Shown: positions 5,497 to 64,000 of the stretch, piece after piece
Position numbering within the stretch: position 1 is the first letter of the stretch
How the letters are laid out: the number at the start of each line of letters is the position of its first letter
DNA from: Dictyostelium discoideum
Taxonomy: Eukaryota
Length of the DNA stretch: 64,000 nucleotides
Reading direction: 5' to 3'
NCBI GenBank assembly: GCA_000004695.1
Contig: CM000154.2
Span: 4,416,001-4,480,000, forward strand
Made by a program: the position numbers and the translations under genes
Notes under the pieces: model-generated
What the model saw: only the letters and a program-made list of their open reading frames with translations
Told to the model about the DNA's origin: nothing
Databases searched by the model: none

Positions 5497-7041
5497 TTAT
5501 TTATTTCTAATTTTTCTTTTAATTGAAACTCTTTCTAAATTATAATTTGAACATTCAAAAGCTTGAAAAGGTGGAACGAAATGAATATAAGTTCCAATTG
5601 TTATACAAGCAATAATCGGACCAACCATATATGGCCAAATTTTATTAAATATTCCAGTTACAATTGCCGGACATAAACATCTAGCCATATTAAATCCAAA
5701 TATATAATTTGGTGAAATACCAGATGATGCAATAATTGAGAAACCTAATGTAATTGATATGAAAAATGCACCAACTGCTCCACCAATTATTGGAGTTTGT
5801 CTTCTATCCAGGGCAGTTCCAAAAGCAATATACAAATTTAACATTGAAAACATGAATTCCATACCAAGTGCTCCACCACTACTTATATCACCACCATATG
5901 TACACATACCTAAATTTGTCCTTTTCATAACTTCGAATGGAATTATACCTCTAATAATCGCTGATCCAATTATACCACCTGTAATTTGAAAAATAATATA
6001 AAATAAACATCTTATAACTTTTTTTTTATTACACCCCACTCTATTAATATAAAATTATAATTATAATAAATTATAATAAAATTAAATTAAATTAAATTAA
6101 ATACATACAGGATGTATAACCTGAAAAGAAAGTTGCAATTGTAATTGACGGATTTAAATGACCACCACTAACAGGGGCACAAGTTAAAATTAATAAGTAT
6201 AATAATGGTACATGTAAAACAGCAGAAGTTGCAGGCACTCTATAATTTGGTACAGAATTTACCAATGTTTCACCATTAAAATCATTAAGATTTGATATAT
6301 ATGAATAATCAAAATAATTTACAGACGAAATGAAAATACCAATTGACATAAATAAAAATAAAGCACTACCAATCATTTCTGTAACTGATGCTTTGTATAA
6401 TTTACTATCGAATAATTCATTGTATCCTGATATTCTTATAATTTCATTTATTAATTTATCTTTAAATTTTAATTTATTTATTTCACTTTTTTCATCAATT
6501 GATGATTGTTTTGATTTTAAATCTTTTTCACTATTCTCATAATCATCGTCATCATAATTATAATATTCATCATCTTTAAATGACTTTGGAGATATTAAAG
6601 TACTACTTGTATTATTATTATTATTATTGACACTATTACCACTACTACCACTTCTATCACTTCTACTATTATTACTAATATTTGATTCAATATCATAGTT
6701 TATGGGTATTTCTAAATCTATTTCATCATTTTCAATACCATCATTATGATGTTGATTTTGTTGATGTTGATGATGTTCAAGATGTTGATGATGTTGATGG
6801 TGTGGGTGGTGTGGATGATGTTGATGGTGTTGATGGTGTTGACTTTGATAAATATGGTGTATTGTATGTCTTTTTCCATAGTCATTATATTCATCATTAT
6901 TATTAGAACCATACCTTATTAAGCTAGCATACTTATAAAATGGAGCTGCTAATTCATATCTAATTTTTTTTCTTCTCCTTATACTTATATTACTACTATT
7001 ACTATTTCTACTACTACTATTACATGTACTTGGACTTTTTA

Positions 7042-7110
<69 letters not shown>

Positions 7111-7147
7111 TACTACTAATACTATTACTATTACTATAACTACTCAT
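5497..7147 (-). CDS. Major intrinsic protein / aquaporin-like channel with a ~250-aa low-complexity N-terminal extension, 2 exons
   Basis: Exon 1 is 7147 down to about 6109. It starts MSSYSNSN, has a 24-residue poly-N, then an (HHQHH)n His-rich tract, then TM helices, and ends ...SGGHLNPSITIATFFSGYTS. Donor is GTATGT at 6108 (alternative GTATTT at 6104). Exon 2 runs from about 6017 (alternative acceptor at 6040) to the stop at 5497-5499. Exon 2 contains VIRCLFYIIFQITGGIIGSAII and GFNMARCL. The two MIP signature boxes read NPS and NMA instead of NPA/NPA. The overall six-TM topology is recognisable. The exact exon-2 acceptor is ambiguous; both options are in phase. Confidence 0.7.
7043..7105 (-). 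repeat. Coding (AAT)n tract encoding poly-Asn inside the aquaporin-like gene
   Basis: Plus-strand (tta)n translates to the N24 run on the minus strand. Confidence 0.9.
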
Positions 7148-10906: not shown

Positions 10907-13500
10907 TTACATTTTATCCCAAGACCAAACTTTAAGATTACTAGCTAATGAACCAGTAAATAATTGATTTTGATTTCTCCAAAGACAAAGAATTGAAGAT
11001 CTTGTATTGAGAGAAGCTAAATTTTCGTATTTATCATGACTGAAAACTTGTAACCAATCACCGCTACCTGCAAAGATACCTTGATTAGTGACGTGAAGAG
11101 TTTCAACACGATCCTTACATTTGATGGTATTGACGCAACGTGTAGTTTTAAGATCCCAAATTCTAATAGTTTCATCATGAGAACCACTGTAGAGCATATT
11201 GTTATGAGCGTAAAGTGTTTTGACCCAACCTTCATGACCTTGGAAATTGGTGAGAATAGTACCAGTAGCTAAATTCCAAACGTAAATTTGTTGATCATTT
11301 GAGCCAGAGAATAAGAGATTACCCATTGCGCAAACCGATTTAATGGCACGAGTATGACCTGATAAAGTTTTAACGCATTCATATGATCTCATATCCCAAA
11401 CTTTAACGGTTTTATCGTTGCAACCAGTGTACAATAGATTGTCTTGAATGAAAATGGTATTGACTTCGTTGGATTCTTTGATCTCTTTGATGGTTTGTTG
11501 AGTGTTGATATCCCATTCCTTAACCAAAGAGTCTGCACCTGCTGTCAAAATATTTTGATCGAAACCTGGACGTTTAATGACTGCTCTAATCGATTTACCA
11601 TGTGCTTTAATGTTGGTAACATGTTTCAATTCAACAGCATCCCAAACACCGATTTGGCCATCATTTGAACCACTATATAATCTTAAACTATCACCAGTGA
11701 TACATTCTGATTGTAAACCTCTAACTGTATCGATATTCTTTATTGATGTTAAATCCCATTTTTCAAATTCTGAACGATCTGGTGTTTGTTCCATTGATGA
11801 TGTTGATGTCGATTCTGGTGTTGGAACATTCGATGATGATGTTGACGATGCTGATGCTGCTGCTGATGATGGTTGAATTGGTTGTTGTGGTGGTGGTGAA
11901 TTTCTAGAAACTTGAATTGAAATTGGTGCTGCATTTGTAGTTGATGATGATGAAGATGATGAAGATGATGATGATGATGAAGATACGCTACTACTATTAC
12001 TGTTAACACTACTACTATTGCTACTATTATTTATATTATCATTATTATTATTATTATTATTACTATTATCATTGTTACTGCTGATGCTACTATTATTATT
12101 ATTTATATTATCTTGTTCTAATTTTACATTACTATTTTCTTTTGGTGGTGATACAGGTGATTTATTTACTACATTTGATTGTGAAGGTGTTTTTACAATT
12201 TGAGGTACAGGTTTTGAAGTTGGTGAAGAAGGTGATTGCTGTTTATGTAAATTATTACCAGATGGTTGTTTAACCAATGGTGGAGAAGGTTTACTTTTTT
12301 GTTGTTGTTGAGCTCTAATTCTTTCCAATTGTTCTTGAAGCATTTTCTCTTCATCATCTAATGAGATTGGTTGTTGAGCACCACCACCATTTCTAAAGTA
12401 ATTCATATCGTAGTTATTCTTTGGACCACTACCATTACCATTCAACCCGATTGCATCATGGAAATCCATTAATTGTACGACGGGTAATGTACCTCTTAGG
12501 AGGGCTTTCTTTGATTGATTGATTGGTTTCAACTTTAAAAAGTCACAAACTGGATTACACTTGTGTGTTTGAAGGAATTTGTGGAAACCCGTCTCGCCCA
12601 AATTACCCTCGCCAAAGCCCTCGCCTGATTTCGTATGAATTTGAGGATCAGTGTAGAAATCGTTGACACCTTGGATATCAACGATCAACAATTCATGATT
12701 GGAGAGTTCGTATGAGAAATGAGAGAATGATTGTGGTGTATTTCTAGCATCACTACTAACGTAACCACTGTTGTTGTTATGTTTCTTGTAATCTCCCTCA
12801 ATGAATGGTTCACCACCACAAACTGGATAAGGTGGTGGATGATCAATCAATTCGTAAACGTATGATGGTAAGAATGTAATTGGTTTTGGTGGTTTCGCTT
12901 CATTGAATTTCTCTGCCCATTTAGCACAAAATGTTTGCATCAATACATCTGTAAAGTATGAATCTCTTGTCGTCTTTTTATTGGTTGAAAATTTACCAAC
13001 TAATCCTTGATCTGGTTGACTCCAATCCTTTAATTTATGTGCTGTTCTACAACTACCCTTTGCAAATGGAGTCTTCTCAATTGAAACACATACAATACTA
13101 TGTGTCCATTTTGGTTTTAAATCATCACCAATTGTTAATTCCCATCTTTTTTTTTTAATAATAAAAAATAATTATTAGTAAATTTAATAATAAAAATTGA
13201 AAAAAAATTGAAAAAAAAAAAAATTAAAAAAAATTAAAACCATACTTTATTGCTCTTTCACATTTTGTACCTGCAATAACATCGGCAACTGGGAATTTTT
13301 GATTTAATAATGCCAAAGCTGTCATTTGAAAAATAAATAAATAATAATAATAAAATTTTAGTTTTATTAGTAATTTGTTCAACTTTTTTTAAAAAAAAAA
13401 AAAAATAGGTTTCTATGTAGTATAAAAAATATAAAATAAAATAATATTTATTTAAAATTGATAATTTACCTGCTGCTGCTCCTGTTTTTTTTTCTTCCAT
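10907..13500 (-). CDS. mhkC: Alpha-kinase + WD40-repeat protein (myosin heavy chain kinase B/C family), 3 exons, 780 aa
   Basis: Exons are 13470-13500 (MEEKKTGAAAG, donor GTAAAT), 13246-13318 (ALALLNQKFPVADVIAGTKCERAI, donor GTATGG) and 10907-13145. Exon 3 begins WELTIGDDLKPKWTHSIVCVSIEK and continues through the alpha-kinase C-lobe (GGEPFIEGDYKKH...LLIVDIQGV...YTDPQIH...FGEGNLG). After an S/N/Q/P-rich linker come seven WD40 repeats (GHTRAI..., WD motifs). The symbol is suggested only because the architecture and the 780-aa length match what I recall for MHCK-C. It is not verified. Confidence 0.75.
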
Positions 13501-19269: not shown

Positions 19270-21847
<2,578 letters not shown>

Positions 21848-22039
21848 TAAAAAATATATAATAATTTTATTGCAATCCTATATGCATTCTTATCAAAGAT
21901 TTAAAAATTAAAATTAAAATTAATCAATAAAATACACATACTATTGTTTTTGGTTCAACTGAAATATACATTATCTCATTTTTTTAAATTTTTTTTTTAT
22001 TTTTACTTAGATTAATCTTTTTTTTTTTATTATCTTTAA

Positions 22040-29600: not shown

Positions 29601-32016
29601 TTAATTTATCTAAAACTGAATAACCATAATATTTGAATAACTCTTTATCGAATCTATTGACAGATTCTCTAAATATTGGTTCATTATCATATAATGATAA
29701 TGCCATTTTATTATATTGTGAACCTTGACCACATAATACCATTACTGTGATTGGTGATTTCTTTTTTTCAACTGTAATATTTGAAATTAAATTATCACTA
29801 TTATTTAATTTAATTTGATTATTTTCATCTTGAAATTCATTCCAATCACTTGCGATTATAACTGATTTTTGAATTAATGATGTTGATTTGAATTTAATTT
29901 GATTATATACAAATTCTTTGAAACTTGTTGTTGTTGTTGTGGTTGATGAATTTGAATGTTTAATTATTGATGATTTATAATTATTTAATGATGTTGATGA
30001 ATTACTTGAGAGTGGTATTAAATATTTCTTTTTTTCTTCACTTAATTTATTATCAATTTCCATTTTGTGATAATCATTATGATTATTTTCAAATTCAGAT
30101 AATATTAAACAAACATTTGAACCTAAATTAAAATTGATTTTAAATTGTTAATATAAATTATTTGGAAAAAAATTATAAGATGATGTAAATATTTACCAGT
30201 TATACCGAAATTATTAATTAACATGACAGTTGGTTTATTTTCATTAAATTTAATTGGTTCAGTGACAACTTTTAATCCCCATTCTTTAAAATTAATTAAT
30301 GGATTTGGTTCTTTGAAATTAATATTTTGAAGAAATAGTTTATTTTTAAACATTAAACAACATTTAATTAATGATGCAACTCCTGAACATGCTGTTATTA
30401 TTTTTTATTATTTATTATTATTATTATAAATAATATTTAGTGTTAGTAATTAATGATTGACTATGGTTATTTATACAACTAAATTTAATTAACTTACCTT
30501 CAGTATGACCAATATTTGATTTAATTGATCCAACTAAAACTTGTTTATTATTATTATTTGTTGTTGTTGATGCTATATTATTGAAAACTCTTGATATACC
30601 TTCTAATTCTATTGGATCACCAGTTGGAGTACCAGTACCATGAGTTTCACAATAATCAATATCAGATTCATTGATTTGACCATTGGTTGATTTGATTGCT
30701 AATTTGATATTTTCACACTGAGATGATTTCGATGGTGAATAAAAGTTTAATTTATCAAAGTTACCATCGATATTTGAACTTGATCCTTTGATTACACAAT
30801 AGATGTTATTTGAATCTTTGATTGCATCTTTTAATTTCTTTAATACAACGATACCAACACCTTCTGAACGAACATAACCATCAGCATCCGATGAAAATGT
30901 ATGACATCTACCTGTTGGACTTAAAAGACCTAATTGAGTAAATGATTTTGAAAGGTGTGGGTCTATAAATAAATAAAAATTATTTGATAATTAATATATA
31001 ATCTTTTTCTTTTTTTAATTTTTAATTTGTCACATACCTAATAAAAAATTAACACCACCAACAATTGAAACATTTGATTTATTTGATTTAATTGAATTAT
31101 ATCCACAATTAATTGCATTTGATGAACTTGAACAAGCTGTATCAATTGTTAAATTTTCGCCTCTATTTTTTAAAAAAAATAATCATGATAATAACAGTTA
31201 GTATTATAATTAAGTTTTTAGTGTGTGCCAAAAAAGATAAATCAAAAACATACCTAAAATCAAAGCAATAACCTATTCTATTTGCAACGGAATGAGTTGT
31301 GGAACCAAAAATATTATTTTGAGTTTCAAATGGTGATCTTTGAAGAATAGAATAATCAATAGTACTACTACCAATAAATGTACTTGTATTGGTACCACGT
31401 AAACTAATTGGATCAATACCACTATCTTCTAATGCTTCCCATACACCTGTTTGTTGGTTTTATTTTAAAAAACATTATTAATAAATAAAAATAATTAATA
31501 ATTAAAAAAAAAAAAAAAAATGAAAAAATAAAAAAAAAAGTAGAAAAAAAAAAATTTAAAAAAATTTTTGGATTATTTATTTTTTTTTTTTTTTTGGCGC
31601 CATTGAATGAATATTTCCAAAACACTTAACAAATACATACATTTTAATAATAATCTTTGTTGTGGATCTATTGAACTGACATTATCATTGCTTGGATTAA
31701 TTGCAAAGAAGATTGGATCAAATTGTTTCCATTCATCAAGTGGAAGTAAACCAGCAAACTTTGAAACGATTTCACCATTTAAATAATAATTATCAGACCA
31801 TCTTTCAGAAGTTGTAACGATTCCATCTAATCCATTCAATAATTCATTAAATAATTGATTTGGTTTTGAAATTGATTCTTTTAAATTACCACTTGGAAAT
31901 CTTAAACCAATACCAATCACTGCAATATCACCACTATCAACATCATCATTATCATCATAATCATTTCTATCCCTTATTAATTTACTATTTCTAGTATTAT
32001 CTGTATTTTGTACCAT
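22040..32016 (-). CDS. Type I iterative polyketide synthase, copy A, 7 exons, about 3106 aa; KS-AT-DH-cMT-ER-KR-ACP-R
   Basis: Exons in plus coordinates are 31641-32016, 31254-31446, 31038-31162, 30498-30962, 30197-30391, 22680-30122 and 22040-22563. Donors are GTATGT x4, GTAAGT and GTAAAT. All phases were checked. Motifs: [23 protein letters not shown] and GSIKSNIGH; [10 protein letters not shown] and GHSLGE; [13 protein letters not shown]; C-methyltransferase [12 protein letters not shown]; [15 protein letters not shown]; [13 protein letters not shown]; ACP QYGMDSL; terminal thioester-reductase Rossmann fold [15 protein letters not shown]. The 96-aa ORF at 22040-22330 is the last exon and continues the reductase domain. 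Confidence 0.9.
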
Positions 32017-32853
32017 TTTCTCTTTTTATAAATAATATAAATATAAAATAAAAATAAAAATAAAATAAATTTGAAATTTAAATTATTGTTTAATATAAAT
32101 TTTTAAAAAGAAATAAATAAAAAAAAATTAAATTTTGGTTGGTTTATTATAAACTGTTCATTTTTAGTTCATATTAAATTAAAATTAAAACTGATATATT
32201 TAACAGCTTGCTTACTAAAATTTGTAAGAGGGGTGGGGGTGTGGTAAAAGTTTTTCGAAATGAAGATTAAAAAAAAAAAAAGTAATATAAAAAAAAGGGT
32301 TAGATTGTATTGATTAGATATTACCTGTAACAATATTTCTATGAATATCTTGTTATATTAATAACCCAATTTATTTTTAGTATACTTTACAATACAATAA
32401 TTATCGTCTCATTAAATTAAAAATTAATAATTATAAAATATTCAATTTTGATAATTAATTACCATTTTATACTAAATTTTATTTAATTTTTACTACGTAT
32501 GTACATTTTTATTTAATTAAATTAATTCAAAAATTTTAATTCTCCACTTGTCAGATATACACTAAGATTTAGATAATGATACTAAGGATAGAGAGAATAA
32601 TTTTAAATTCAATTCTTCATACTAAATAAGATCAAATTAAAGAAATTATTGATAATTATTATATTAATAATAAAAATCAATCACTTTTTCTAAATATTTC
32701 CCAACTCCAACCAGATTGAATTAGATGTAAAAGATAGGATTTTGAAGATATACATTATCTCATTTTTTAATTTTTTTTTTTTTTATTATTACTTTGATAA
32801 ATATTTTTTTAGTTATTTTTTATTAATTTATTATTATTTAATATTATGTTTTT

Positions 32854-41266: not shown

Positions 41267-42868
41267 AATAATATTAAATGTTAGTAATTAATGATTGACT
41301 ATGGTTATTATTGATCTAAGTCTAATTTTTAATTAATTAGCTTACCTTCAGTATGCCCAATATTTGATTTAATTGATCCAATTAAAACTTGTTTATGATT
41401 ATTATTTGTTGTTGCTGGTGCTTTATTGAAAACTCTTGATATACCTTCTAATTCTATTGGATCACCAGTTGGAGTACCAGTACCATGAGTTTCACAATAA
41501 TCAATATCAGATTCATTGATTTGACCATTGGTTGATTTGATTGCTAATTTGATATTTTCATACTGAGATGATTTTGATGGTGAATAAAAGTTTAATTTAT
41601 CAAAATTACCATCGATATTTGAACTTGATCCTTTGATTACACAATAGATATTATTTGAATCTTTGATTGCATCTTTTAATTTCTTTAATACAACGATACC
41701 AACACCTTCTGAACGAACATAACCATCAGCATCCGATGAAAATGTATGACATCTACCTGTTGGACTTAAAAGACCTAATTGTGTAAATGATTTTGAAATG
41801 TGTGGATCTATAAATAAATAAAAATTATTTGATAATTAATATATTTGTTTTAATTTTTTTTTTTTTTTTTTTTTATTTTTTTTTTTTTAATTTTTAAATT
41901 TATCACATACCTAATATAAAATTAACACCACCAACAATTGAAACATTTGATTTATTTGATTTAATTGAATTATATCCACAATTAATTGCATTTGATGAAC
42001 TTGAACAAGCTGTATCAATTGTTAAATTTTCACCTCTATTTTTTATAAAAAAATAATCACGATAATAACAATTAGTATTATAATTAAGTTTTTAGTGTGT
42101 GCCAAAAAAGATAAATCAAAAACATACCTAAAATCAAAGCAATAACCAATTCTATTTGCAACGGAATGAGTTGATGAACCAAAAATATTATTTTGAGTTT
42201 CAAATGATGATTTTTGAAGATTATTATAATCAATAGTACTACTACCAATAAATGTACTTGTATTGGTACCACGTAAACTAATTGGATCAATACCACTATC
42301 TTCTAATGCTTCCCATACACCTGTTTGTTGATTTTATTTTAAAAAACATTATTAATGGGTAAATGAAAAAAAAATGAAAAAAAAAATTTGGTGGTTATTT
42401 TTTATTTTTTTATTTTTTTTTTTTGGTTGGTTTCATTTTTATATTTTTTGGCGCCAAACCTGATGAAAATTTCCAAAACACTTATAATGAATACATACAT
42501 TTTAATAAAAATCTTTGTTGTGGGTCTATTGAACTGACATTATCATTGCTTGGATTAATTGCAAAGAAGATTGGATCAAATTGTTTCCATTCATCAAGTG
42601 GAAGTAAACCAGCAAACTTTGAAGCAATTTCACCATTTAAAAAATAATTATCAGACCATCTTTCAGAAGTTGTAACGATTCCATCCAATCCATTCAATAA
42701 TTCATTAAATAATTGATTTGGTTTGGAAATTGATTCTTTTAAACTACCACTTGGAAATCTTAAACCAATACCAATAACTGCAACATCACCACTACTACCA
42801 GCATCATCATAATCATTTATATCCCTTATTAATTGATTGTAAGTATTATTATCTGTATTTTGTACCAT
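32854..42868 (-). CDS. Type I iterative polyketide synthase, copy B (paralog of A), 7 exons, about 3075 aa
   Basis: Exons are 42499-42868, 42128-42320, 41911-42035, 41346-41807, 41006-41200, 33574-40932 and 32854-33377. Intron positions and domain motifs are identical to copy A. Length differences against copy A are confined to poly-N linkers and one codon in exon 4. Confidence 0.9.
33387..33508. repeat. (AAT)n microsatellite in the last intron of PKS copy B
   Basis: About 120 bp here versus about 30 bp at the same site in copy A (22570-22600) and about 95 bp in copy D (56704-56800). Confidence 0.9.
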
Positions 42869-43100
42869 TTTCTTTTTTCTTAATAAATTAATATAACAAA
42901 TTAAAATAAAATATAATAAAATAAATGTGATATTTAAAAATTAAAATTAATAGAAAAAAAATAAAAATTAAATTTTATTTTAAACTGTTTAACAATTTTT
43001 AGTTCATATCAAATTAAAATTAAAACTGATATTTTTAACAGTTTTGCTTACAAATTCAAAGAAGATCTGGGTGTGCTGATATTTATTTGGGAAAAATGAT

Positions 43101-43137
<37 letters not shown>

Positions 43138-44221
43138 ACAGATTGCACAGGTATAGTTTAGATTTATTTATTTTTAATTTATATAAAATCAAAATCATAA
43201 TATAACCCCCACTCCCAACATTAATAATTAATTTTATTCTTATTTTAACAATTTTTTTTTTTTTTTTTCATAAAGTTTAATATTTTCGTTGGAATTAATG
43301 ATTGGTTTTAAAATTTATAAAAAAACAGTTTATTGCAACCACATTTGTACAATAATAATTTTATCTTTTTTTTAATTGGAAAATGGTTATCAAAATTCTA
43401 ATAATGAATTTAATTTTTTCTGTTGTTTTAAAACGTTTCAAGTGTGTTTATTTTTAGAAATAATAAAAAGTTTATTAATTAATTAAAAAAAAAAAAAATT
43501 TGGTGGTTGATTTTTTTTTTTTTTTAAAAAAAAGATGTTAAATTTTAACCCAATTCCCCCATTTAAAGATCAATTTATTTTAACAAACAAAACGTTTTTT
43601 TCAATAATTTTTTTTAATATTATTTTATATAAAAAATAGTCCCTACTCTTTAAAATAATAAATCATAAAAAATAAAATAAAATAAAATAAAAAAAAAATA
43701 TTTTTTTTTATTTTAGTGATATTACCTTTTTTTATTTGATTTTTATTTAAATTGCCTCGCCGAATTGTTTTCGATTAGTTTTTAAATTTTAAAAAAAATA
43801 TCAAATTCCACTGGAAAATTTATATTATTTTTATCTTTAATTATTTTTTTTGGTAATATAACCATATTTTAATTAAAAAAAAAAAAAAAATAAAAAAAAA
43901 TATTAGAATCAAACCTTTATACTTTTATTTATCAATTAATTTAAAAAAAAGGCACTTTAACAATTGGTGAATAGAATTGTACTATATTAGTTAATAGTTT
44001 TCATGGTGAATCACCAAAATTATTTTTTATATTTAATATCTTAGTTCACATTTTCATAAGATCAAATTTTAGAATTTTATTGTTTGCCATTCATTCTTTG
44101 AAAATGGTTTTTTATTTTAAAGAACAACCAGAAGGGGGTAAATTTTATTTGTGATTTTTATAAAAAAAAAAAAATTAATTCGATTTGATTTATGAACATG
44201 GTCTTCAAATGATTGATTCAT

Positions 44222-47200
44222 TTAATTATTTTTGTTTTTGTTATTACTATTATTTTTATTATTATTATTATTATTATTTTTGTTGTTGTTTTTAGCCGAT
44301 TTAATAATTTCAATTGATTGATTGATTTTATTATTTTGTAATTGTTGAATTGTGATAATATTATGACCTAATTGATTATCGATAAAATTCTTTAATTGTA
44401 CAATCACTAAACTATCCATACCATATTGCGAGAGTTGAAGGTCTTCATTGATTTTAGATTCATCAATCGATAATAATTCACTAATTTTATTTAAAATTGT
44501 TGAATGAATAATTTCATTATTAGCACCACTATTACCACTAGAGAAGGATTTAATTCGATTTGATTTTTTAACAATATTAATTTGATAATCAAATTTTGAA
44601 TGGTATTGATTTGTTAAAGTTGGTGTTAAAACTTCAAAATTGAAATCTGATAAACAGTAATTTGGATATTGATGTTGATTTTGAATGAATAAATCTAATG
44701 AACTAATAACGAGTTGAGGTGAGAATAAATTTACAATTGAACTCTTAAACATTGTTTCAATTGCATTATTACGCGATACAAAACCGGTTGATGATATCGC
44801 ACCTAAATTAATGGCTAAAGATGGTAATCCAATTGAATGTCTATACTTTGATAATGAATCGATAACACTACATGCACTAACATAACAACATTGTTGGTCT
44901 GATCCAAATATTGAGACTACTGATGATGCCATTATAAATTGTTTGATATTCCATGAACGATTAATTGATTGATTGTGAAGATTAATTGCTCCAATCGTTT
45001 TAGCACCATGTGCATTATTTAAACGATTCATATCGACTTGTTGAACATCACCAATGTCTATCATAAATGCAAAATGAATGATTGAATCAATATTTGTAAT
45101 ATTTTCATTTAATTCTAATTGGTTCAATACTTGATTAACTTTATTTGAATCTTCAATATCGATTTGATTGAAATGGAATTTAATATTATTATCTTTTTTA
45201 AATTTGCTTTGATTGATTAATAATTTTAATTCCCATTTTAATTTTGATTTTGAAAGTATTATTATATTTTCAATTGAATGGTTTGAATATTTGATTAAAT
45301 ATTTTAATATTTCTAAAACAATACCAGTTTGACCAGTGAGTAAAATATTTTTACCAATATTTAATTTTGAAATATCATATGAATGTTTCATTATGATTTG
45401 ATTGTTATTACTTTGATAATTATTATAAACTCTATTAAATTCATCTTGATTATGATTAACAATGATTTTACCAATATGTTTTCTTTGATTTATATATTCA
45501 ATTGCATCTTTAAATTGATTATTTGAATATTCAATGATTGGTACACTTAACTCTAATTTATTTGAATTAATCATTTTGATAATTTTCTTTAAATATCTTT
45601 TGATTAATTTACTTGGGAAATCTTCGATATCCACATTACCATAGTTCATATTAAATTTGTAATGATTGTTTGTCATATAATCATTTGGTGTGAGATGAGT
45701 GATACTTAAATCAACGATACGTCCTGATAAATTTAAACATTGGAAATTTGAATCCATATACTCTGATGATAATGTATTTAATATTAAATCTACACCTTGT
45801 TGATGTTGTTCGACTACACCTAATTCTATTAATTTATTCTTAATTTCATAAACATAATCTTTATTACGAGATGAATAGATAGCAGTAATTAATGATCCAT
45901 ATTTATTTATTAAGTATTCTTCTTTATCTTTTGAACCAACTGTTAAAAATATATAACCTTGATGTTGTTTACTTTTTAATAAATCTAAAGATGATATACC
46001 AATACCACCTGCTGCTGAATGAATTAAAATTGATTCATTTGATTTTAAATTACCAATACTATAGATACTATGTAATGTTGTAATATAAATAGATGGTATT
46101 GAGGCTGAAACTGAATGACTACAATTTAATGGTTTATAATAAATAGAATTGAAATCTATAATAACATGTGAACTATTTGTTTTTGAACCGAAACCACAAA
46201 CTTGATCACCAACTTTAAATTTCTTTACATTACTACCTAATCTTGTAATTATACCACTAAAGTCATTACCAATTTTTGGATTATCAATACCAATACCATA
46301 TTCAATTTCTTTACCATATTTAATATCTAAATCTGAACCAATCATACCAATATACATTAAATAGTCTTTATAATTTATACCAGTTGCTTTAACTTCTATC
46401 TCTACTTCATTTGAATTTAATTCATCTTTTTTACTATATAATTGATATTCTATATTTGAATTTAATTGAATATATAAATTATCTTTATTGGTTTCAAATG
46501 ATTCAGATTGGAATTTACTTTTTATATTATTTGATCTTCTACAGTATCTTTCATAGTATACTTTATTATTATTAATTGTAAATTCTTTTTGAATATTATT
46601 ATTTGGATTGATTAAATAATTGATTAATGATAATTGTTGATTATTTTCAATTGAAACATTATCATAATTTAAAATATATAAATCTAATTGTGGGAATTCA
46701 ACGAAATAACGAGCAGCACCAATAATTGATGATGATAAATAATTATCAGTGGTTGAATTTAATGATAATAATAAATGTTTGAAATTATTTGATAATTCTA
46801 ATTTTAATATTAATTGATTAATTTGAATGTATTCAAATGTGATTTCTTTGAAATTTGAAGTATTCATTGTTGATTCAATTGATTTTAAAAATATTATTAA
46901 TGATTTATTACAATTATCTTTATTTTGATTATTTGTAATCCATGATTGAAATTCATTATAATTATTAATATTAATGATTTTATGTTTTAATTCTTGATTT
47001 AATCTTATTAAATCAAGAATACTACTGCTGCAACTATTTCTATTTTTATTATTACTAAATAAAATGATATTATTGAAAGAATTTAATTGATCTAATGATA
47101 TTGATTGTTCTGAAATGATTTCATTAATTGTTGGTTTTCTAGTTTGAATTAAAAATAGTAAATTATCATTACCAGACATTATTGTATCTCTATAATTACA

Positions 47201-50200
47201 TTGACTCAAAAGGTTAACCCATTTCTCTTGTTTCATACAACATCTATCAGGTCTTAATTCGATATCACCATCAGAGGATGGCCACCATTGTGAAAAACAA
47301 CCGAATATCGAATCAAAATAAAATGATTTGTATGGTGGTTCTATATATAAAAGTTGACCATTTGGTGTTAATATATTATGAATTTCATTTAATGTTGGTT
47401 TGAGTTTCTTAACGACATGCATAACATTTGACATTACAACGAAATCATAATAGGATGCTTTAAGATCTTGATCTAATAATGGTTTCTCTAAATCTAATAC
47501 ACGATAGATAATATTTAAATTGTTATGATTTGTAAATGATGAGAACTTTTCTTTAATTTCAGCGAAAAATGATGCAGATACATCACTCCATGTAAATTCT
47601 ATATTAATGATTGATGTTGTACTATTATCATTTAATAATTTACAAATCTTTTCTAAAATTAATAAACTAAGACTACCAGTACCACCACCTGCTTCTAATA
47701 TACGAAATACAATTGGTTCATTTAAAATTGGTTTTAGAGTTTCAACTATAATTTCACTTAATAAATTATTCAATGGTTGAACTACTCTTGAATTCTTATA
47801 AAAGTCATCTAAAAAACCACTTTCAAATAATGATTGTGGTGTATCTGTAATAGAATCATCATCTTTTAATGGGAATAACTGTTTTGCCATTATTTTAGTT
47901 GTTCTAATAAATATCTTTTCAATTTTTGGCTTAATATTACTTTGATTATTGTCATGGTTAAGAATATTACTATATCTCTTTAAATTTTCAAAAATGAATT
48001 TGAAAAGATTTTCATTTACTAAACTATTATAATATAATTGTTTAAATTGATTATATTCTAATGTTGTTAATGATTCTAAATTAATACTTGGACATCTATT
48101 ATTAATGTGTTTATAAAATAATGACAATAATAATTCATTTGAAATAAATTGATTATCTTCTTCGTTGACACTAAATTCATCCACACTATATAAATGTTTG
48201 AATTGTTCAGGTTTATTAACTACTGAATCTTTTGATTGAAGATATGGTGTATAAATATCATTTAATGGTGGTTTACAAATTATAGTACTATCAGGATTGG
48301 AGCCAAGTGAAACTAAAGCGCAAACTACATTTGAGATATCAACTAATAATGTACCATTTGGAAGTATGATTTTGACTGATATTGAATATGTTTGATAATT
48401 GGTTCTAGGTTTAATATCTGAAAAAACATATAATTCTTTAATATCATCATTATTGTTGTTTTCATTTAATGATGGAATATTTGAAAAGTAATATTTGAAA
48501 CCTTCAATTCTATCAAGTACGACTGGTTGTGTAACTGCAACTAATGACCCATGTAAACAAGTATCTAAAATTGCTGTATTTAAGAATTTATTCATATTGC
48601 TATTGTTGATTAAATGATTATATTCTTTTTGATTATAAATTTCATTTAATGATACTATTGATAATGAACAATTATTACCGATATAACATTGTTTTACACC
48701 TTGAAATAAACCTTTGTATGTTAAATTTGTTTTAATTCGAATAGTTTCATAAAAATCTTGTTTTGATATGCTTGTAAAATTACATTTATCTTTTAATGAT
48801 TGAATATTAATTAATTTGTTACTGATGATACTGTTATGTTTGGTTAAATTAAAATTACCAAGAGATGATAATATCCATTGATTTGTTTTTTGATCTTTAT
48901 AATGACTTTTAATATTGAATTCATTCTTTGATAGTGGTGCAATTGTAGTTTGTAAACATTGATTATTACCTTCTGTTAATACCAATGGTGATTTAAATTC
49001 TAATGAGCTAATTGTAATATCTTGATTTGGATAAATTGATAATAAATTGTGAACATATCCCATTCCTGGATAATAGAATTTATCACTAACTTGATGACCT
49101 TTTAACCATTGGAATGGAGATTTCTTGATATCGATAAATGTTTGATATGATGGATATGGTGAATCTGTATTATTGCCAAGACTATGAATGGATGGACCTT
49201 CACTTTTAATCTTTTCATGAAATGAAGCAATTTTAAAGTATTCTTTATCATCCCATTGGTAAAGTGGTAAATTATTTAATTTGGTTGTGTTACTAATGTT
49301 GTTGTTGTCATTGATTAATTGTGATTTGAAATTAATATCAAAATTATTATTGACATATAATAAAGAGATTGTCTTTAAGAATTCATTATAATCATTCTTC
49401 TTTTTATTTAATGGTGAATAGATTGTAATGTTTTTACCATTATTAAAGTAACTTGATTGAGTTGATTTCATTTGATTTAAGTAATATTGTAATGTTGGAT
49501 GTGGTGAAACTTCAATGAATGTAATTTCATTACCCATATCATTTGATTCGATATGTTTATAAAGATTTGTTATTGTTTGTGTGAAACGAACTGGTTGGCG
49601 AATATTTTCAAATGCATAATCTGCATTGAATGGCAAGCTTTGATGATTGAATAAATTGGTTGTAACTGTTGAAAATACTGCTATCGATGGTTGTTTTGAT
49701 GAAATATTTAATGAACATACTTCATCTTTAATCATTTGTTGACTTGATGTATGAAATGATGATAATAATCCTAACATTGTACAAAAGATATTATTTGATT
49801 TGAATTCATTGGTAATTTCATTTAATAAGTCTTCTCTACCTGCGATAACGATTGATGTTGGTGAATTGTAACATGCAATTTCTAATGATTCATATTTAGT
49901 TGTAGATTGATAGTTATTAATGAATTCATCTGAACTAATATTAACTGATAACATTCTACCTGTACCTGTGGTTCTATTTTGAGCTACTGATCTATGGTAA
50001 ATCAAGTAGCATAATGTTTGAAAATCAATCATACCTGAACAATATGGTGATGATACTTCACCAAGAGAATGACCAATGATAATATCTGCTGAAACGCCCC
50101 AATGTTTATATAATTCATAGAGTGATACTTGAATGATAACATTTGCAGGTTGTGCTAAAATTGGTTGATGAATTGATATTAAATCTTTATCATCAATTGA

Positions 50201-52561
50201 TCTTAATTTATCTAAAACTGAATAACCATAATATTTGAATAACTCTTTATCGAATCTATTGACAGATTCTCTAAATATTGGTTCATTATCATATAATGAT
50301 AATGCCATTTTATTATATTGTGAACCTTGGCCACATAATACCATTACCGTGATTGGCGATTTCTTTTTTTCAACTGTAATATTTGAAATTAAATTATCAC
50401 TATTTTCTAATTTGATTTGATTATTTTCATCTTGAAATTCATTCCAATCACTTGCGATTATAACTGATTTTTGAATTAATGATGTTGATTTGAATTTAAT
50501 TTGATTGTGTACCAATTCTTTGAAACTTGTTGTGGTTGTTGGCGATGAGTTTGAATTTGAAAGTTTAATTATTGATGATTTATAATTATTTAATGATGTT
50601 GATGAATTGCTTGAGAGTGGTATTAAATATTTCTTTTTTTCATTAACTTTACTATCAATTTCAATTTTGTGATATTCATTTTCATAACGATTATGATGAT
50701 TTTTTTTTAATTCAGATAATATTAAACAAACATTTGAACCTAAATTAAAATTGATAGTTTTAAATTATTAATATAAGTTATTTGGAATCATTAATGATGT
50801 ATATTTACCAGTTATACCGAAATTATTAACTAACATGACAGTTGATTTATTTTCATTAAATTTAATTGGTTCAGTGACAACTTTTAATCCCCATTCTTTA
50901 AAATTAATTAATGGATTTGGTTCTTTGAAATTAATATTTTGAAGAAATAGTTTATTTTTAAACATTAAACAACATTTAATTAATGATGCAACTCCTGAAC
51001 ATGCTGTTATTATTTATTATTATGAAAAATATTTAATGTTAGTAATGATTTATAGCTCTAAAGTTAATTAATTAACTTACCTTCAAGATGTCCAATATTT
51101 GATTTAATTGATCCAACTAAAACTTGTTTATTATTATTTATTGTTGTTGATGGTATTTTAGCACTATTGAAAACTCTTGAAATACCTTCTAATTCTATTG
51201 GATCACCAGTTGGAGTACCAGTACCATGAGTTTCACAATAATCAATATCAGATTCATTGATTTGACCATTGGTTGATTTGATTGCTAATTTGATATTTTC
51301 ACACTGAGATGATTTTGATGGTGAATAAAAGTTTAATTTATCAAAGTTACCATCGATATTTGAACTTGATCCTTTGATTACACAATAGATATTATTTGAA
51401 TCTTTGATTGCATCTTTTAATTTCTTTAATACAACGATACCAACACCTTCTGAACGAACAAAACCATCAGCATCTGATGAAAATGTATGACATTTACCTG
51501 TTGGACTTAACATATCTAATTGGGTGAACGATTTTGAAATGTGTGGGTCTATAAATAAAATTTTTTTGATAATTAATATATAATTCTAAAATTTTCTTTT
51601 TTTTTTTTTCAAATTTATCACATACCTAATATAATATTAACACCACCAACGATTGAAACATTTGATCTATTTGTTTTAATTGAATTATATCCACAATTAA
51701 TTGCATTTGATGAACTTGAGCAAGCTGTATCAATTGTTAAATTTTCACCTCTATTTTTAAAATAACAATTAGTATTTAAGTTTTATTCTTCCAAAAAAGA
51801 TAAATCAAAACATACCTAAAATCAAAGCAATAACCAATTCTATTTGCAATTGAATGAGTTGATGAACCAAAAATATTATTTTGAGTTTCAGATGGTGATC
51901 TTTGAAGATTATAATAATCAATAGTACTATTACCAATAAATGTACTTGTATTGGTACCACGTAAACTAATTGGATCAATACCACTATCTTCTAATGCTTC
52001 CCATACACCTGCATGTTTGTTAATTTTATTTTAAAAAACATTATTAATGGGTAAATAAATAAATAAATAAAATAAATAAATAAATAAATAAATAAAAGAA
52101 AAAAAAAATTTTGGTGGGTTCATTTTTTTTATTATTTATTTTTGGCCAAACCTGATGAAAATTTCCAAAACACTTAATAAATACATACATTTTAATAATA
52201 ATCTTTGTTGTGGGTCTATTGAACTGACATTATCATAAGTTTGATTAATTGCAAAGAAGATTGGATCAAATTGTTTCCATTCATCAAGTGGAAGTAAACC
52301 AGCAAACTTTGAAACGATTTCACCATTTAAATAATAATTATCAGACCATCTTTCAGAAGTTGAAACGATTCCATCCAATCCATTCAATAATTCATTAAAT
52401 AATTGATTTGGTTTTGAAATTGATTCTTTTAAATTACCACTTGGAAATCTTAAACCAATACCAATCACTGCAACATCACCATCATCATTTCTATCAACAT
52501 CATCATCATCATTTCTATCCCTTATTAATTTATTATTATTATTATCTATATTTTGTGTCAT
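44222..52561 (-). pseudogene. PKS copy C, 3'-truncated: KS-AT-DH-cMT-ER-KR-ACP intact, reductase domain and last exon lost
   Basis: Exons are 52189-52561, 51816-52008, 51626-51750, 51081-51548, 50809-51003 and 44222-50739. The reading frame is open for about 2623 codons. Homology to copies A/B ends at about 44185, inside the sequence encoding NESIISRP of the reductase domain. A deletion of about 70 bp relative to copy B shifts the frame to a TAA at 44222-44224. Sequence below 44185 is unrelated to PKS. It could still be expressed as a reductase-less PKS. Confidence 0.75.
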
Positions 52562-52574
52562 TTTCTCTTTTTAC

Positions 52575-52690
52575 AAATAAATAAAATAAAATAAAATAAA
52601 ATAAAATAAAATAAAATAAAATAAAATAGAATAAAATAGAATAAAATAGAATAAAATAGAATAAAATAGAATAAAATAAAATAAAATAAA
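52575..52690. repeat. (AAAAT)n / (GAATAAAATA)n minisatellite immediately upstream of the PKS copy C start codon
   Basis: Direct read: aaataaaataaaat... then five units of aataaaatag. Confidence 0.85.
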
Positions 52691-53975
52691 TAAATAAATT
52701 TGATATTTAAATAATAGAAATAAAAAAAAAAATTAAATAAAAAATTTGATGACGTTTATAGTTTTTGAAAAAATAAAAATAAAAAAAAGGTTAGATTGTT
52801 TGGATATTACTTTCAACACAAATAATTAATTTTAATTTTTGTTTTTTTTTTATTTGACCCAAAATTATGTTTTTTTTTATTTTTTTTTATTTTTTTTTTT
52901 TAAAATCTGGTGACTCTATATAAAAAACTATTTAATAGATTTAACTTAATGTATAGTTTGCTTTTGTGTTTGTAAATTTAGAAAAAAAAAAAAAAAATGA
53001 AATGTTGCAACTTTTTTATTTTTTTTGTTTCTATTTGATATCTCTTTTTTGTTATATGTTTACTTTACGAATTTATTACAGAAAAAATATAAATACATTC
53101 ATCTAAAATATAAATGCATTAATCTAAAATTTACATTTTTTCTGAAATCTAAAATTTTATACATTCATCTAAAATATGATTTTTTATTTCAGAAAGTGAT
53201 ACCTTTTGGTCACATATTTTACATGGCACAACTATTGGTGAAAGTTTACTCATTTCAGTCATTTTTAAATTTAAAGATAAAATATATATGTATTAGACAA
53301 AAAAAAAAAAATTAAAAAAATTTATATGAGACTCCTTATTATGTTTTATAAATTTTAATACGACAACAATTTCGACAAAAAAAACATTTTTTTTTCAAAA
53401 AAAAAACTTTTTTTTTCTGAAAATATTACACCCAGACACAAAAAATTAATTTTTCACCACTTTAATGCTGAAATTTTTACACCCTTAATTAGATTATAAC
53501 TTTTTTTTTTTTTTTAATTTATTGTTTTTATTTTTATTTTTGTTTTTATTTTTGTTTTTAAAATTAAATAATAAAAAAACAGTTTATTGAAATCAAGATG
53601 TTGAAGTATATTACAAAAGGTACAATGGTCATTTTTTTATTTTGGTTTTTTTTTTAAAATTAAAATAAAATAAAATTAAACAGTTTTCAAAAAATAAATT
53701 AAAAAAACTTTTTTTTAAACTGTTTTCAAGTGCGTTTTTAGAAATAAAAAAAGTTTTTTAATTATTAATAAAGAAAAAAAAAAAAAAAATTTGGTGGTTT
53801 TTTTTTTTTTAATAGAAGGTTAAAATTATTTTAACCCACTTCCCCAAAATTTAAATATATCAATTTGTTTTTAACAAAAACATTATTGGTTTTTTTATTT
53901 CATAATTTAAATAGTTTTTTTTTAAAAAAACTTTAATATAAAAGATTCTCAATTTATATATTTTATAATATTACA

Positions 53976-55730
53976 ATGAATACAATATTTACAATTATTT
54001 TAACAATTACAATATTAGTATTATCATTAATATTAAAAGTAAAATTTTAAAATATTATATATATTATTGACTATTAAAAATTAAACACTTACTTATACTT
54101 TTATTTTTTTAAATAGGATTTATTATTTGAAGGTAGGATTAAAAAAATTAATAAATTAATACCTGGTCCTTCTACAATTCCAGTTTTTGGTAATTTATTA
54201 CAAATTAACGCAAAAGATTTCCCAAAAAGTGTAAATGATTTCTATGAAAGATATGGCAAAGTTTTTAGATTAAGATTGGGTAGTGTTGAAATTGTTGTTC
54301 TAACTGGACCTGAAGTTATTGATGAATGTTTTAATAAAAAACATAGAGAAATTTTCAAAGAAAGATATATTAAATTCTCAAGATTTTTGGGTAAAGATTA
54401 TAATATTTTTTCTTCAAATGGTGATTATCATTATGTTCTAAGAGGAATTCTTACAAGTGAAATTACAACAAGAAAGTTAAATAATGGCAGATTAGAATCA
54501 AATAAATTTATTTTAGAAATGTTTAGTAATCTTTGTAAAGATAATAAAGAAACTCTTGTTAAAAATACACCAAATCAAATTAGGATTCTTGCTGTTAAAT
54601 TAATATTAAATTTCACATTAGGAATTGAAGAGAATGACGAAACCATTCTAATCATTGTAGAAAAGATTAAATGCATTTTTGAAGCTGCTGGATTATTAAT
54701 TTACTCTGATTATTTACCATTTTTATTTCCATTAGATATAAAATCAATGTCAAAGAATGATATTATTTCTAGTTACTTTTTTATAAAAGATTTTATAGGT
54801 ATAAAACTTGATGCTATTAAAATTAAATATGAAAAAGAAAATGAATTGAAAAATGAAACTACTGATGAAACATCTTCAAAACTAAACAATATTCCAATTA
54901 TTGAGAATTATTATAAAAATTATTTAGATGGTTCAATTCATTATGATTCAATCTTGTTTTCAATTTCTGATATTATTTTTGCAGCAGTTGATTCAACATC
55001 CAATGGGTTTAGTCTTTTAATTGGTCAATTAATTAATAAACCTGAAATTCAAGATAAAATATATGAAGAAATCATGAGAAATGATGAAAATAATAATACA
55101 AATAATATATCATTTGCTGATCATACAAAATATCCATATATTATTTCTGTAATGAATGGTAATTATCCATATATATATATATATATTGGTATTAATATGT
55201 GTTGATATATTTTTTCAAAAAATAAATTTTGTATTAATTTGAATAATAGAATCATATAGATATAATTCTTCAGTACCAATAACTGAACCGAATAAAACAA
55301 CAGAAGATGTTGAAGTAAATGGATATAAAATTGCAAAAGGTACAATGATAATTAAAAATCTTCGTGGTACACATTTATCAAAAGAGTTTTGGGGTGAAGA
55401 TGCTTTAGAATTTAAACCAGAAAGATTTAAAAATCAACCTTTAAATCAAAAAGGACTTTTTCATTTTGGTGCAGGTATGTTTTAAACTATTTTGAAATGG
55501 GAATCAAAATTTATCACTAATACAATAATAAATATTATTTTATTTAAACAGGAGCTAGAGCTTGTCCAGGAGGAAGATTTACAGAATCTTTTACTTTTAC
55601 TTTTTTGGTGATAATGTTAAAGAATTTTAAAATAGTCAATCCAACTGATATTCCAATTGATGTTGAAGGAGAAGTTGGTTTGGCAATGCAATGTAAACCT
55701 TTTGATGCCTTATTCATAAAACGTAATTAA
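53976..55730 (+). CDS. Cytochrome P450 monooxygenase, 4 exons, 502 aa
   Basis: Exons are 53976-54038 (MNTIFTIILTITILVLSLILK, signal anchor), 54117-55158, 55250-55474 and 55552-55730. Donors are GTAAAA, GTAATT and GTATGT. It has the I-helix AAVDSTS (AGxDTT-like), the PERF motif (EFKPERF) and the heme-binding loop FHFGAGARACPGGRF. It is divergently oriented to PKS copy C, whose ATG is about 1.4 kb away. Confidence 0.85.
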
Positions 55731-55914
55731 AAAAAAAAAAGAATATATTTTTTATTATTTTAATTATTGTTTTCATTTAAATGTAAATAAAAAAAAAAAA
55801 AAAAATAATATTTAATATATTTGTTTTTTAATTTGGTTTCTTTTATTGTTTTTTTTTATTATTGTTTTTTAATTATTTTTATCATTAATTTTTTTTTTTA
55901 TTGTATTTTTTTTA

Positions 55915-56100
55915 AGAATTATATTTTCAAGATGGTTATTTTATAATAAACCCAGATATTAATTAAGTGGTCACTTAAAATATTAAATAACCAGTTTGAA
56001 TGATTAAGATAGATCAATTACCTATCACTCATATTATATTTGATAACAAAAATAATAAACAATAAGTAATAATTTTATTGCAATCCTATATAGGATTTTG
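55915..56100 (+). other. Degenerate partial copy of the 3' end of the 19370-21847 orphan gene (relic of the duplicated unit)
   Basis: 55921-55990 is similar to 21301-21360 (agatggttattttataataaacc.agatatta.ttaagtg). 56003-56100 is similar to 21806-21895 (atcaattacctatcactc....ataattttattgcaatcctatat). About 440 bp of the source gene between those blocks is absent. 56100-56165 continues homology with the region downstream of the PKS-A stop (21985-22080). Confidence 0.7.

Positions 56101-56162: not shown

Positions 56163-64000
<7,838 letters not shown>

Follow-up and report, generated by a model that had tools for sequence, protein, structure and literature searches.

In Dictyostelium discoideum, the terpene synthase gene DdTPS8 and the cytochrome P450 (CYP) gene CYP521A1 are arranged head-to-head with 685 bp between them. 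They are co-expressed (r = 0.994), and they work one after the other, as proven by co-expression, heterologous reconstitution and a mutant (PMC6524965). Linkage has also been assumed for two polyketide synthase (PKS) genes, pks24 and pks25, since they share a promoter region, and their double knockout was studied by metabolomics (PMC12625978). Here we describe a 64,000-nucleotide (nt) D. discoideum window, that is, the whole stretch of DNA analyzed, whose coordinates are used throughout, in which the P450 gene cyp514A4 lies within an array of PKS genes and head-to-head with one of them, pks31. In pks24/pks25 both partners are PKSs, while here one partner is a P450. As in DdTPS8-CYP521A1, a scaffold synthase gene is arranged head-to-head with a microsomal-type P450 gene across an AT-rich spacer, of 1414 instead of 685 bp, and both P450s belong to lineage-specific families. 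Unlike that pair, the synthase is a PKS, the association is known from sequence, and the two genes are situated inside a tandem array of near-identical paralogues.

We take the lovastatin cluster, in which the fungal highly reducing PKS LovB is combined with the P450 LovA, to be comparable to pks31/cyp514A4. In such fungal clusters, an iterative type I PKS of the composition KS-AT-DH-MT-ER-KR-ACP adjoins a P450 that oxidizes the released chain, in a configuration like the present one. Fungal clusters usually add a pathway regulator, a transporter and other tailoring enzymes, whereas here we observed two types of genes in several copies and no sign of a cluster-specific regulator. To pair a PKS with a tailoring P450 is a conventional idea, and the locus is new only as an unstudied instance of it. 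Our overall account, to which we assign a probability of roughly 0.55, is that cyp514A4 stands beside the PKSs as part of a duplicated cassette, a shared pathway being plausible but unproven.

cyp514A4 and the polyketide synthase array

The four long PKS reading frames of the window (copies A to D) are all on the minus strand, and cyp514A4, on the plus strand, sits between the third and the fourth. An earlier note on this DNA had described a complete P450 gene transcribed divergently from PKS copy C and convergently with copy D, and both the arrangement and the gene were borne out. Synthase and tailoring gene are direct neighbors, cyp514A4 and pks31 (copy C) being head-to-head and cyp514A4 and copy D tail-to-tail, with spacers that fit this description (Table 1). 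The coordinates that the note had given are exact, 52562 being the first base beyond the pks31 ATG and 55730 the one that completes the P450 stop codon. Both cyp514A4 and pks31 are already annotated genes.

Table 1. Features of the cyp514A4 region, in window coordinates.
Feature	Position	Strand	Basis
pks31 (DDB_G0290703, Q54FQ1), PKS copy C	44222-52561	-	splice model, exact match to EAL62086.1, Pfam
cyp514A4 (DDB_G0290707, UniProt Q54FP9)	53976-55730	+	gene model, exact protein match, Pfam p450
PKS copy D, extending past the window end	56163-64000	-	gene call, Pfam
Divergent spacer, pks31 ATG to cyp514A4 ATG, 1414 bp	52562-53975		gene models
Tail-to-tail spacer, cyp514A4 to PKS copy D, 432 bp	55731-56162		gene models
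PKS-proximal spacer module	52562-52818		homologous to upstream regions of PKS copies A and B (BLAST)
cyp514A4-specific segment, ~370 bp	53091-53463		lies between BLAST blocks 52481-53095 and 53463-54200 against the cyp514A1 locus (L002)
P450-proximal spacer module	53463-53975	+	93.7% to cyp514A1 upstream region, ~72% to strain ACTFIR, relic in the B-C spacer
Conserved boxes ATTTGGTGG (53789-53797) and AACCCACTTCCCC (53833-53845)	53789-53845	+	alignment, enrichment
Imperfect 21-bp tandem repeat with four ATCTAAAAT cores	53084-53177	+	Tandem Repeats Finder
Mini-open reading frame, 37 codons, MTEMSKLSPIVVPCKICDQKVSLSEIKNHILDECIKF	53149-53262	-	C2HC-like pattern CxxC-x11-H-x4-C, ATG-initiated
Relic of P450 proximal promoter, PKS B-C spacer	43254-43587	+	BLAST, alignment, box enrichment
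Relic of P450 exon 3	53595-53627	+	two collinear 14-mers matching 55306-55319 and 55333-55346

The coding exons of cyp514A4 (53976-54038, 54117-55158, 55250-55474 and 55552-55730) are separated by three GT..AG introns of 78, 91 and 77 nt and specify a product of 502 amino acids (aa). The spliced protein agrees exactly with the D. discoideum AX4 entry "Probable cytochrome P450 514A4" (XP_635592.1/EAL62088.1/Q54FP9), which the CYP catalog lists under DDB_G0290707 (eLife supplement, PMC6524965). The Pfam p450 domain (PF00067) spans residues 37 to 496 of the 502 (1.9e-64; 218.6 bits versus a cutoff of 22.8), a full-length match, and all of the motifs named in the earlier note could be located. These are the heme loop FGAGARACPG (aa 441-450), whose coding sequence is interrupted by intron 3, PERF (aa 425-428) and the I-helix motif AAVDSTS (aa 309-315), which carries alanine where glycine is usual in (A/G)Gx(D/E)T(T/S); an ExxR motif, ESYR, is present at aa 369-372. 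Within the heme loop, F441, G442, G444, R446, C448, P449 and G450 are invariant in 14 relatives. In a comparison with cyp514A1 and four other relatives (P0001, P0002, P0003 and P0008), aa 445 (window 55475-55560) is alanine in CYP514A4 (FGAG-A-RACPG) and proline in all the others, a change that is probably harmless since this position varies among P450s in general. The N terminus forms a hydrophobic helix followed by IPGP, and this helix and hinge suggest a microsomal enzyme anchored in the endoplasmic reticulum. As no P450 signature motif is missing and the splice sites are canonical, we regard the gene as intact, and it is under purifying selection, with ratios of nonsynonymous to synonymous substitutions (dN/dS) of 0.24 to 0.33 versus orthologues; dS between cyp514A4 and cyp514A1 is only 0.018. 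No second P450 was detected in the window by tblastn, just the 33-bp relic of an exon 3.

CYP514A4 is 100% identical to the UniProt/NCBI entry of that name, 98% to CYP514A1, 65% to CYP514A2 and 46-47% to the CYP514 proteins of D. purpureum. Under the nomenclature thresholds used for P450s (>40% identity for a family, >55% for a subfamily), it falls in the CYP514 family, subfamily A. Its close homologues are exclusively Dictyostelium CYP514 proteins; next come other dictyostelid P450s at 28-31% identity and, beyond the dictyostelids, plant CYP81-type and animal CYP2-type enzymes at ~25%. Among solved structures, the best matches are CYP2C, 2R1, 2E1, 2B and 21A2, and the best 60 include CYP2, CYP21, CYP17, CYP1, CYP3, CYP24 and plant P450s (cinnamate 4-hydroxylase, ferruginol and sugiol synthases) but no CYP51. 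Membership of a housekeeping subfamily such as CYP51, which the earlier note had named as fatal to its proposal, does not apply; judged by these comparisons, CYP514 is a dictyostelid-specific family separate from CYP51. With the microsomal class II P450s of animals (CYP2, CYP17, CYP21) and of the plant CYP71 clan (e.g., CYP81), CYP514A4 has in common the N-terminal anchor, the proline hinge and the signature motifs, at ~25% identity over the full length. Unlike these groups, CYP514 is a separate, dictyostelid-only family, and a substrate is not inferable from such distant kin.

Reconstruction of pks31 on the minus strand (exons 52561-52189, 52008-51816, 51750-51626, 51548-51081, 51003-50809 and 50739-44222) gave five canonical introns and a protein of 2623 aa that exactly matches EAL62086.1/Q54FQ1. 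Its Pfam domains are KS-AT-DH-MT-ER-KR-ACP, and the protein ends in a poly-Asn linker past the ACP. Copy D consists of a last exon (56163-56462) and a large open reading frame (ORF; 56870-63907), both on the minus strand, and harbors AT-DH-MT-ER-KR-ACP-R, where R is a thioester-reductase domain (NAD_binding_4 match). The reductase motif is found in copies A, B and D and is missing from pks31. The long ORFs of the four copies are 90-94% identical as proteins, and the array PKSs are of the highly reducing iterative type I kind.

Relics in the array and the pairing at related loci

Two stretches of the spacer that separates PKS copies B and C are relics collinear with the region upstream of cyp514A4: 43254-43341 corresponds to 53501-53595 and 43423-43587 to 53710-53878. 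They hold the boxes ATTTGGTGG and AACCCA(A/C)TTCCCC and reach to ~100 bp before the expected P450 ATG. Past them, ~600 bp are unmatched, and then PKS coding homology begins at the equivalent of copy D position 57620, in the ACP region or linker. This is most simply explained by a P450 formerly situated between copies B and C. A single deletion apparently took this P450 together with the reductase-domain end of pks31, which would be the reason why pks31 lacks the reductase domain; the anatomy of the truncation spans window 42869-44221 and 44222-44300. In the A-B spacer, just ~250 bp of the PKS-proximal part has been kept.

Two further relics bear on the history of the array. Upstream of cyp514A4 lies the relic of a P450 exon 3, made up of two adjacent and collinear 14-mers, while a single such match was obtained in 23 of 1000 dinucleotide shuffles. 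Located ~350-380 bp upstream of the gene's own ATG and present likewise at cyp514A1, it looks like the remnant of an older tandem P450 copy. On the other side of cyp514A4, 55911-55973 and 56010-56091 are 85-92% identical to 21296-21357 and 21802-21883, which form the 3' end of a 922-codon ORF (no Pfam domain) adjoining PKS copy A; the duplication that made copy D would therefore have carried along part of copy A's neighbor gene. There is good support for growth of the array by segmental duplication of a two-gene PKS-plus-P450 cassette, with losses later. The P450 promoter relics kept in the B-C spacer indicate that the repeat unit was a PKS plus a P450.

The chromosomal surroundings of CYP514 relatives were compared for D. 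discoideum strain ACTFIR, D. cf. discoideum, D. citrinum, D. firmibasis and D. purpureum and for cyp514A1 and cyp514A2. The order PKS(-)/P450(+)/PKS(-) was found also in strain ACTFIR and in D. cf. discoideum. In D. citrinum, three P450s alternate with an intact PKS and with fragments of PKSs, and in D. firmibasis two PKS-P450 units follow one another (loci L006 and L010). Each D. discoideum-clade genome examined has kept at least one intact P450 inside the PKS array.

The paralogue cyp514A1 (DDB_G0290743; locus L002) is located in AX4 ~23 kb beyond cyp514A4, outside the window. By BLAST, its upstream region matches window 52481-53095 (79.7%) and 53463-54200 (93.7%), so that the two loci have ~1.1 kb of spacer in common and, in addition, the beginning of PKS exon 1. 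Since these upstream blocks are homologous, the whole spacer and the exon-1 start were copied along with the P450. The partner PKS of cyp514A1 has exon 1 split by a ~6.4-kb retrotransposon without long terminal repeats (non-LTR; L002 2465-8861), which carries ORFs for an endonuclease (Exo_endo_phos) and a reverse transcriptase (RVT_1) as well as a poly(A) tail and is marked by a target-site duplication of 10 bp, ATCATCATTT; the start codon of this PKS reads AAG. The gene model of cyp514A1 (L002 10001-12111) predicts 575 aa, with ...FIKH in place of the ...FIKRN-stop of cyp514A4 and splicing to an extra exon, either because a stop codon was lost or as an annotation artifact.

The spacer between pks31 and cyp514A4

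The 1414-bp spacer is a composite. Its PKS-proximal module, which contains an (AAATA)n microsatellite (52575-52698; Tandem Repeats Finder), has BLAST matches at 31900-32128, 32276-32332 and 42802-42925, and ~60-250 bp of it thereby recur, unaccompanied by a P450, upstream of copies A and B. The adjoining middle part, from ~52818 to 53095, is common only to the cyp514A1 locus. It is followed by the ~370-bp cyp514A4-specific segment, in place of which ~20 bp are found upstream of cyp514A1 and which has no counterpart in strain ACTFIR or D. cf. discoideum; a BLAST search for its origin against the window and the ten loci gave only low-complexity matches and no repeat or transposon match. The P450-proximal ~510 bp, in turn, recur at cyp514A1 beside a dead PKS and as the relic in the B-C spacer.

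The earlier note had proposed that the two genes share a 1.4-kb bidirectional promoter. Divergent genes, a short spacer and the absence of an intervening gene were all observed, although the spacer measures 1414 bp versus 580-685 bp in terpene synthase/P450 pairs. Sequence comparison did not support a spacer conserved as a unit or shared cis-elements: the PKS-proximal and P450-proximal parts occur independently elsewhere, and the middle ~370 bp belong to cyp514A4 only. Because each half is found elsewhere without its partner gene, the most fitting view of the spacer is that of two promoter modules placed side by side, not of one obligatorily shared unit, and the proposal of a shared promoter was not upheld. 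Separable modules would nevertheless be compatible with co-regulation of pks31 and cyp514A4.

The only footprints conserved in cyp514A4, cyp514A1, strain ACTFIR and the B-C relic are the boxes ATTTGGTGG and AACCCACTTCCCC, ~130-190 bp upstream of the P450 ATG. The ATTTGGTGG 9-mer has four matches in the window versus 0.73 expected, and the two boxes are the best candidates for P450 promoter elements. A box of the form A(n)-TTTGGTGG-T(n) occurs on the plus strand in the P450 proximal promoter (53789-53797), in the relic (43498-43506) and, as an exact copy, in intron 1 of PKS copy B (42386-42394), and the variant TTTTGGTGGG lies on the plus strand in intron 1 of pks31 (52110-52119); this could be a shared element or a coincidence. 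In surroundings of ~10% G+C, two TTACACCC boxes were noticed (53428-53434 and 53479-53485), the second of which is conserved upstream of cyp514A1. They are presumably similar to the CA-rich elements to which G-box factor binds in Dictyostelium promoters.

A proposed pathway and alternative readings of the locus

It is quite possible, if somewhat short of an even chance, that the PKS/CYP514 pair is a true two-enzyme biosynthetic cassette, which would be the first PKS-P450 cluster to be described in Amoebozoa. Such a cassette would evolve by being duplicated whole and then losing one of its partners. One or two P450s would in this way serve a family of near-identical reductase-terminated PKSs, and variants devoid of the reductase domain, like pks31, would give new chemistry. 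Terminal thioester-reductase domains release aldehydes or alcohols, and in the unproven mechanism that goes with our overall account the neighboring PKSs would release their chain in this form through the terminal reductase domain. The P450 would hydroxylate or epoxidize the reduced, methylated chain. Microsomal P450s require an NADPH-P450 reductase. RedA or RedB, both of which D. discoideum carries (PMC2257935), would reduce the enzyme.

Several observations weigh against a common pathway. No PKS was found within 10 kb of cyp514A2, an older paralogue (64-65% identical), or of the CYP514 genes of D. purpureum (three in tandem plus one single); their neighbors are signaling proteins, with RGS/LRR, Cbl/SH2/RING, TRAF/MATH or MAPEG domains. 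The pairing is thus conserved in the D. discoideum strains, D. citrinum, D. firmibasis and at cyp514A1 and absent at cyp514A2 and in D. purpureum, and since the latter loci are without a PKS, it would have arisen once, in the D. discoideum/citrinum/firmibasis lineage. This agrees with a published comparison of D. discoideum and D. purpureum, in which PKS expansions were specific to each lineage (PMC3188802). Within the array, PKS copies A and B are intact without an adjoining P450, and cyp514A1 is apparently intact beside its dead PKS. The D. discoideum gene total is ~12,500. With 41 intact CYP and ~40 PKS genes (PMC6524965), chance alone would, as a rough estimate, give ~0.3 CYP-PKS adjacencies per genome, so that one founding adjacency is not significant by itself. 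Later block duplication adds no independent evidence, and embedding in the array follows from it automatically; conserved adjacency discriminates weakly, as gene order is generally kept among these close relatives. We found in the literature no expression values for both genes together and no metabolite or knockout data linking them; a paper describing a PKS-CYP514 cluster was not found there either.

These points lend themselves to another explanation, namely, that the P450 joined a PKS once by chance in an ancestor of the D. discoideum clade and has since been copied along, while serving an unrelated pathway (lipid, sterol-like or xenobiotic oxidation) under its own regulation. We consider this a serious possibility, if on the doubtful side. 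It would agree with CYP514 genes without PKS neighbors, with the separable promoter modules, with the loss of P450s from two of the three window spacers while the PKSs stayed intact, and with the survival of cyp514A1 next to a retrotransposon-disrupted PKS. It would also agree with the up-regulation of CYP514A4 together with several unrelated CYP genes after RNP1A knockdown, in a report that mentions no PKS (bioRxiv 10.1101/2022.07.08.499268). A gene merely carried along is, however, harder to reconcile with the retention of at least one intact P450 in the PKS array of every D. discoideum-clade genome examined, with purifying selection on the P450, and with the precedent of a validated synthase-P450 cluster in D. 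discoideum (PMC6524965). We retain as our account a duplicated cassette with a plausible shared pathway. Of the earlier claim that PKS plus P450 is the signature of a biosynthetic gene cluster, what stands is that the arrangement is seen again at loci both paralogous and orthologous, having been duplicated as a unit; it is restricted to one clade. In a phosphopantetheinyl-transferase mutant, pks31 is moderately down-regulated at aggregation (PMC12625978), and this report, taken with that on CYP514A4 after RNP1A knockdown, indicates that both genes are transcribed.

Two other readings concern the spacer. The earlier note had seen a candidate transcription-factor site in a four-fold repeated motif, which lies in the cyp514A4-specific segment. 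Its core ATCTAAAAT starts at 53101, 53122, 53147 and 53167, and these four exact 9-mers within 75 bp (53101-53175) are far beyond chance. The whole window has 13 matches versus 6.15 expected, of which the nine others are all coding: eight fall within the four PKS copies, where their positions are paralogous, and the ninth is at 19442. The spacing of 20-25 bp, about two helical turns, and the position between divergent genes (at distances of 540-614 bp to the ATG of pks31 and 801-875 bp to that of the P450) would suit a functional array of sites co-regulating pks31 and cyp514A4, but we hold this to be very improbable. Tandem duplication of a 21-bp unit explains the pattern (53084-53177; 4.3 copies, 70% matches according to Tandem Repeats Finder), and the 64 kb contain 79 arrays of period 10-60, this one included. 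The repeat starts within ~10 bp of the left edge of the cyp514A4-specific segment, which is absent from the promoter of the 98% identical paralogue and from other strains and species. A search in ten other spacers (A-B, B-C, P450-D, the cyp514A1 upstream region and six orthologous ones), of the kind that the earlier note had recommended for other PKS promoters, revealed no exact copy, and one-mismatch matches occur there at background, ~2.5 per kb. As a tandem repeat confined to the cyp514A4-only segment and absent elsewhere, the array points to recent local duplication; it looks like a recent 21-bp minisatellite within a recently acquired, cyp514A4-specific fragment and is unlikely to be a conserved regulatory site. 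Thus, the four copies are real, while their proposed role finds no support in conservation. A MEF2/GATA reading of the repeat was considered because a mef2A mutant was reported to alter "Pks32" (PMC3640940), and was rejected on two grounds. One is a by-eye misfit to the MEF2 consensus YTA(W)4TAR, a misfit that also speaks against an array of sites. The other is that, in the primer table of that paper, the "pks32" primers for quantitative PCR carry the tgrF1 identifier DDB_G0292732, leaving it uncertain which PKS was measured.

It is very improbable that the spacer holds an unrecognized small gene that would split it into two ordinary promoters, be it the C2HC-like mini-ORF or the unplaced DDB_G0290705. 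One number is indeed unused between DDB_G0290703 and DDB_G0290707, and the mini-ORF is ATG-initiated, has 37 codons and displays a CxxC...HxxxxC pattern; the minus strand of the repeat reads ATTTTAGATGAATG, which encodes "ILDEC," so that the repeat appears on that strand as successive copies of the tail of this ORF. Its Pfam scores (CEP104_ZnF, 2.4e-4; zf_C2HC_14, 1.7e-3) are, however, below the curated cutoffs, and it lies inside the cyp514A4-specific insertion. In a collection of 5.8 billion protein sequences, no homologue of the mini-ORF was found, and the six-frame pieces of the spacer (52700-53975) had no match among the 8000 low-complexity candidates listed. The 2025 chromosome re-annotation calls no gene in the spacer, and tRNA and Rfam scans of it gave no match. 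The mini-ORF is probably a nonfunctional fragment.

Few of the ~40 PKSs of D. discoideum have known products, and we found in the literature no tailoring enzyme for the non-Steely PKSs. If cyp514A4 and cyp514A1 do act on pks31-type products, they would offer a concrete knockout target, and the predicted mass shifts could serve to assign orphan features in existing metabolomics datasets. The history of the array, with duplication of a unit, one deletion of a P450 plus reductase domain, and a PKS killed by a retrotransposon, bears on the design of such work. Because the paralogues are 90-98% identical after cassette duplication, guide RNAs and the mapping of RNA sequencing reads must be paralogue-aware.

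To the left of the array lie two unrelated genes, both on the minus strand. One codes for a protein with a weak MIP (aquaporin-like) domain (6092-7147) and the other for an alpha-kinase/WD40 protein (10907-12943). The latter is located in the only G+C-rich stretch of the window, which reaches 34-37% at 11-13 kb, compared with ~13-27% per kb elsewhere.

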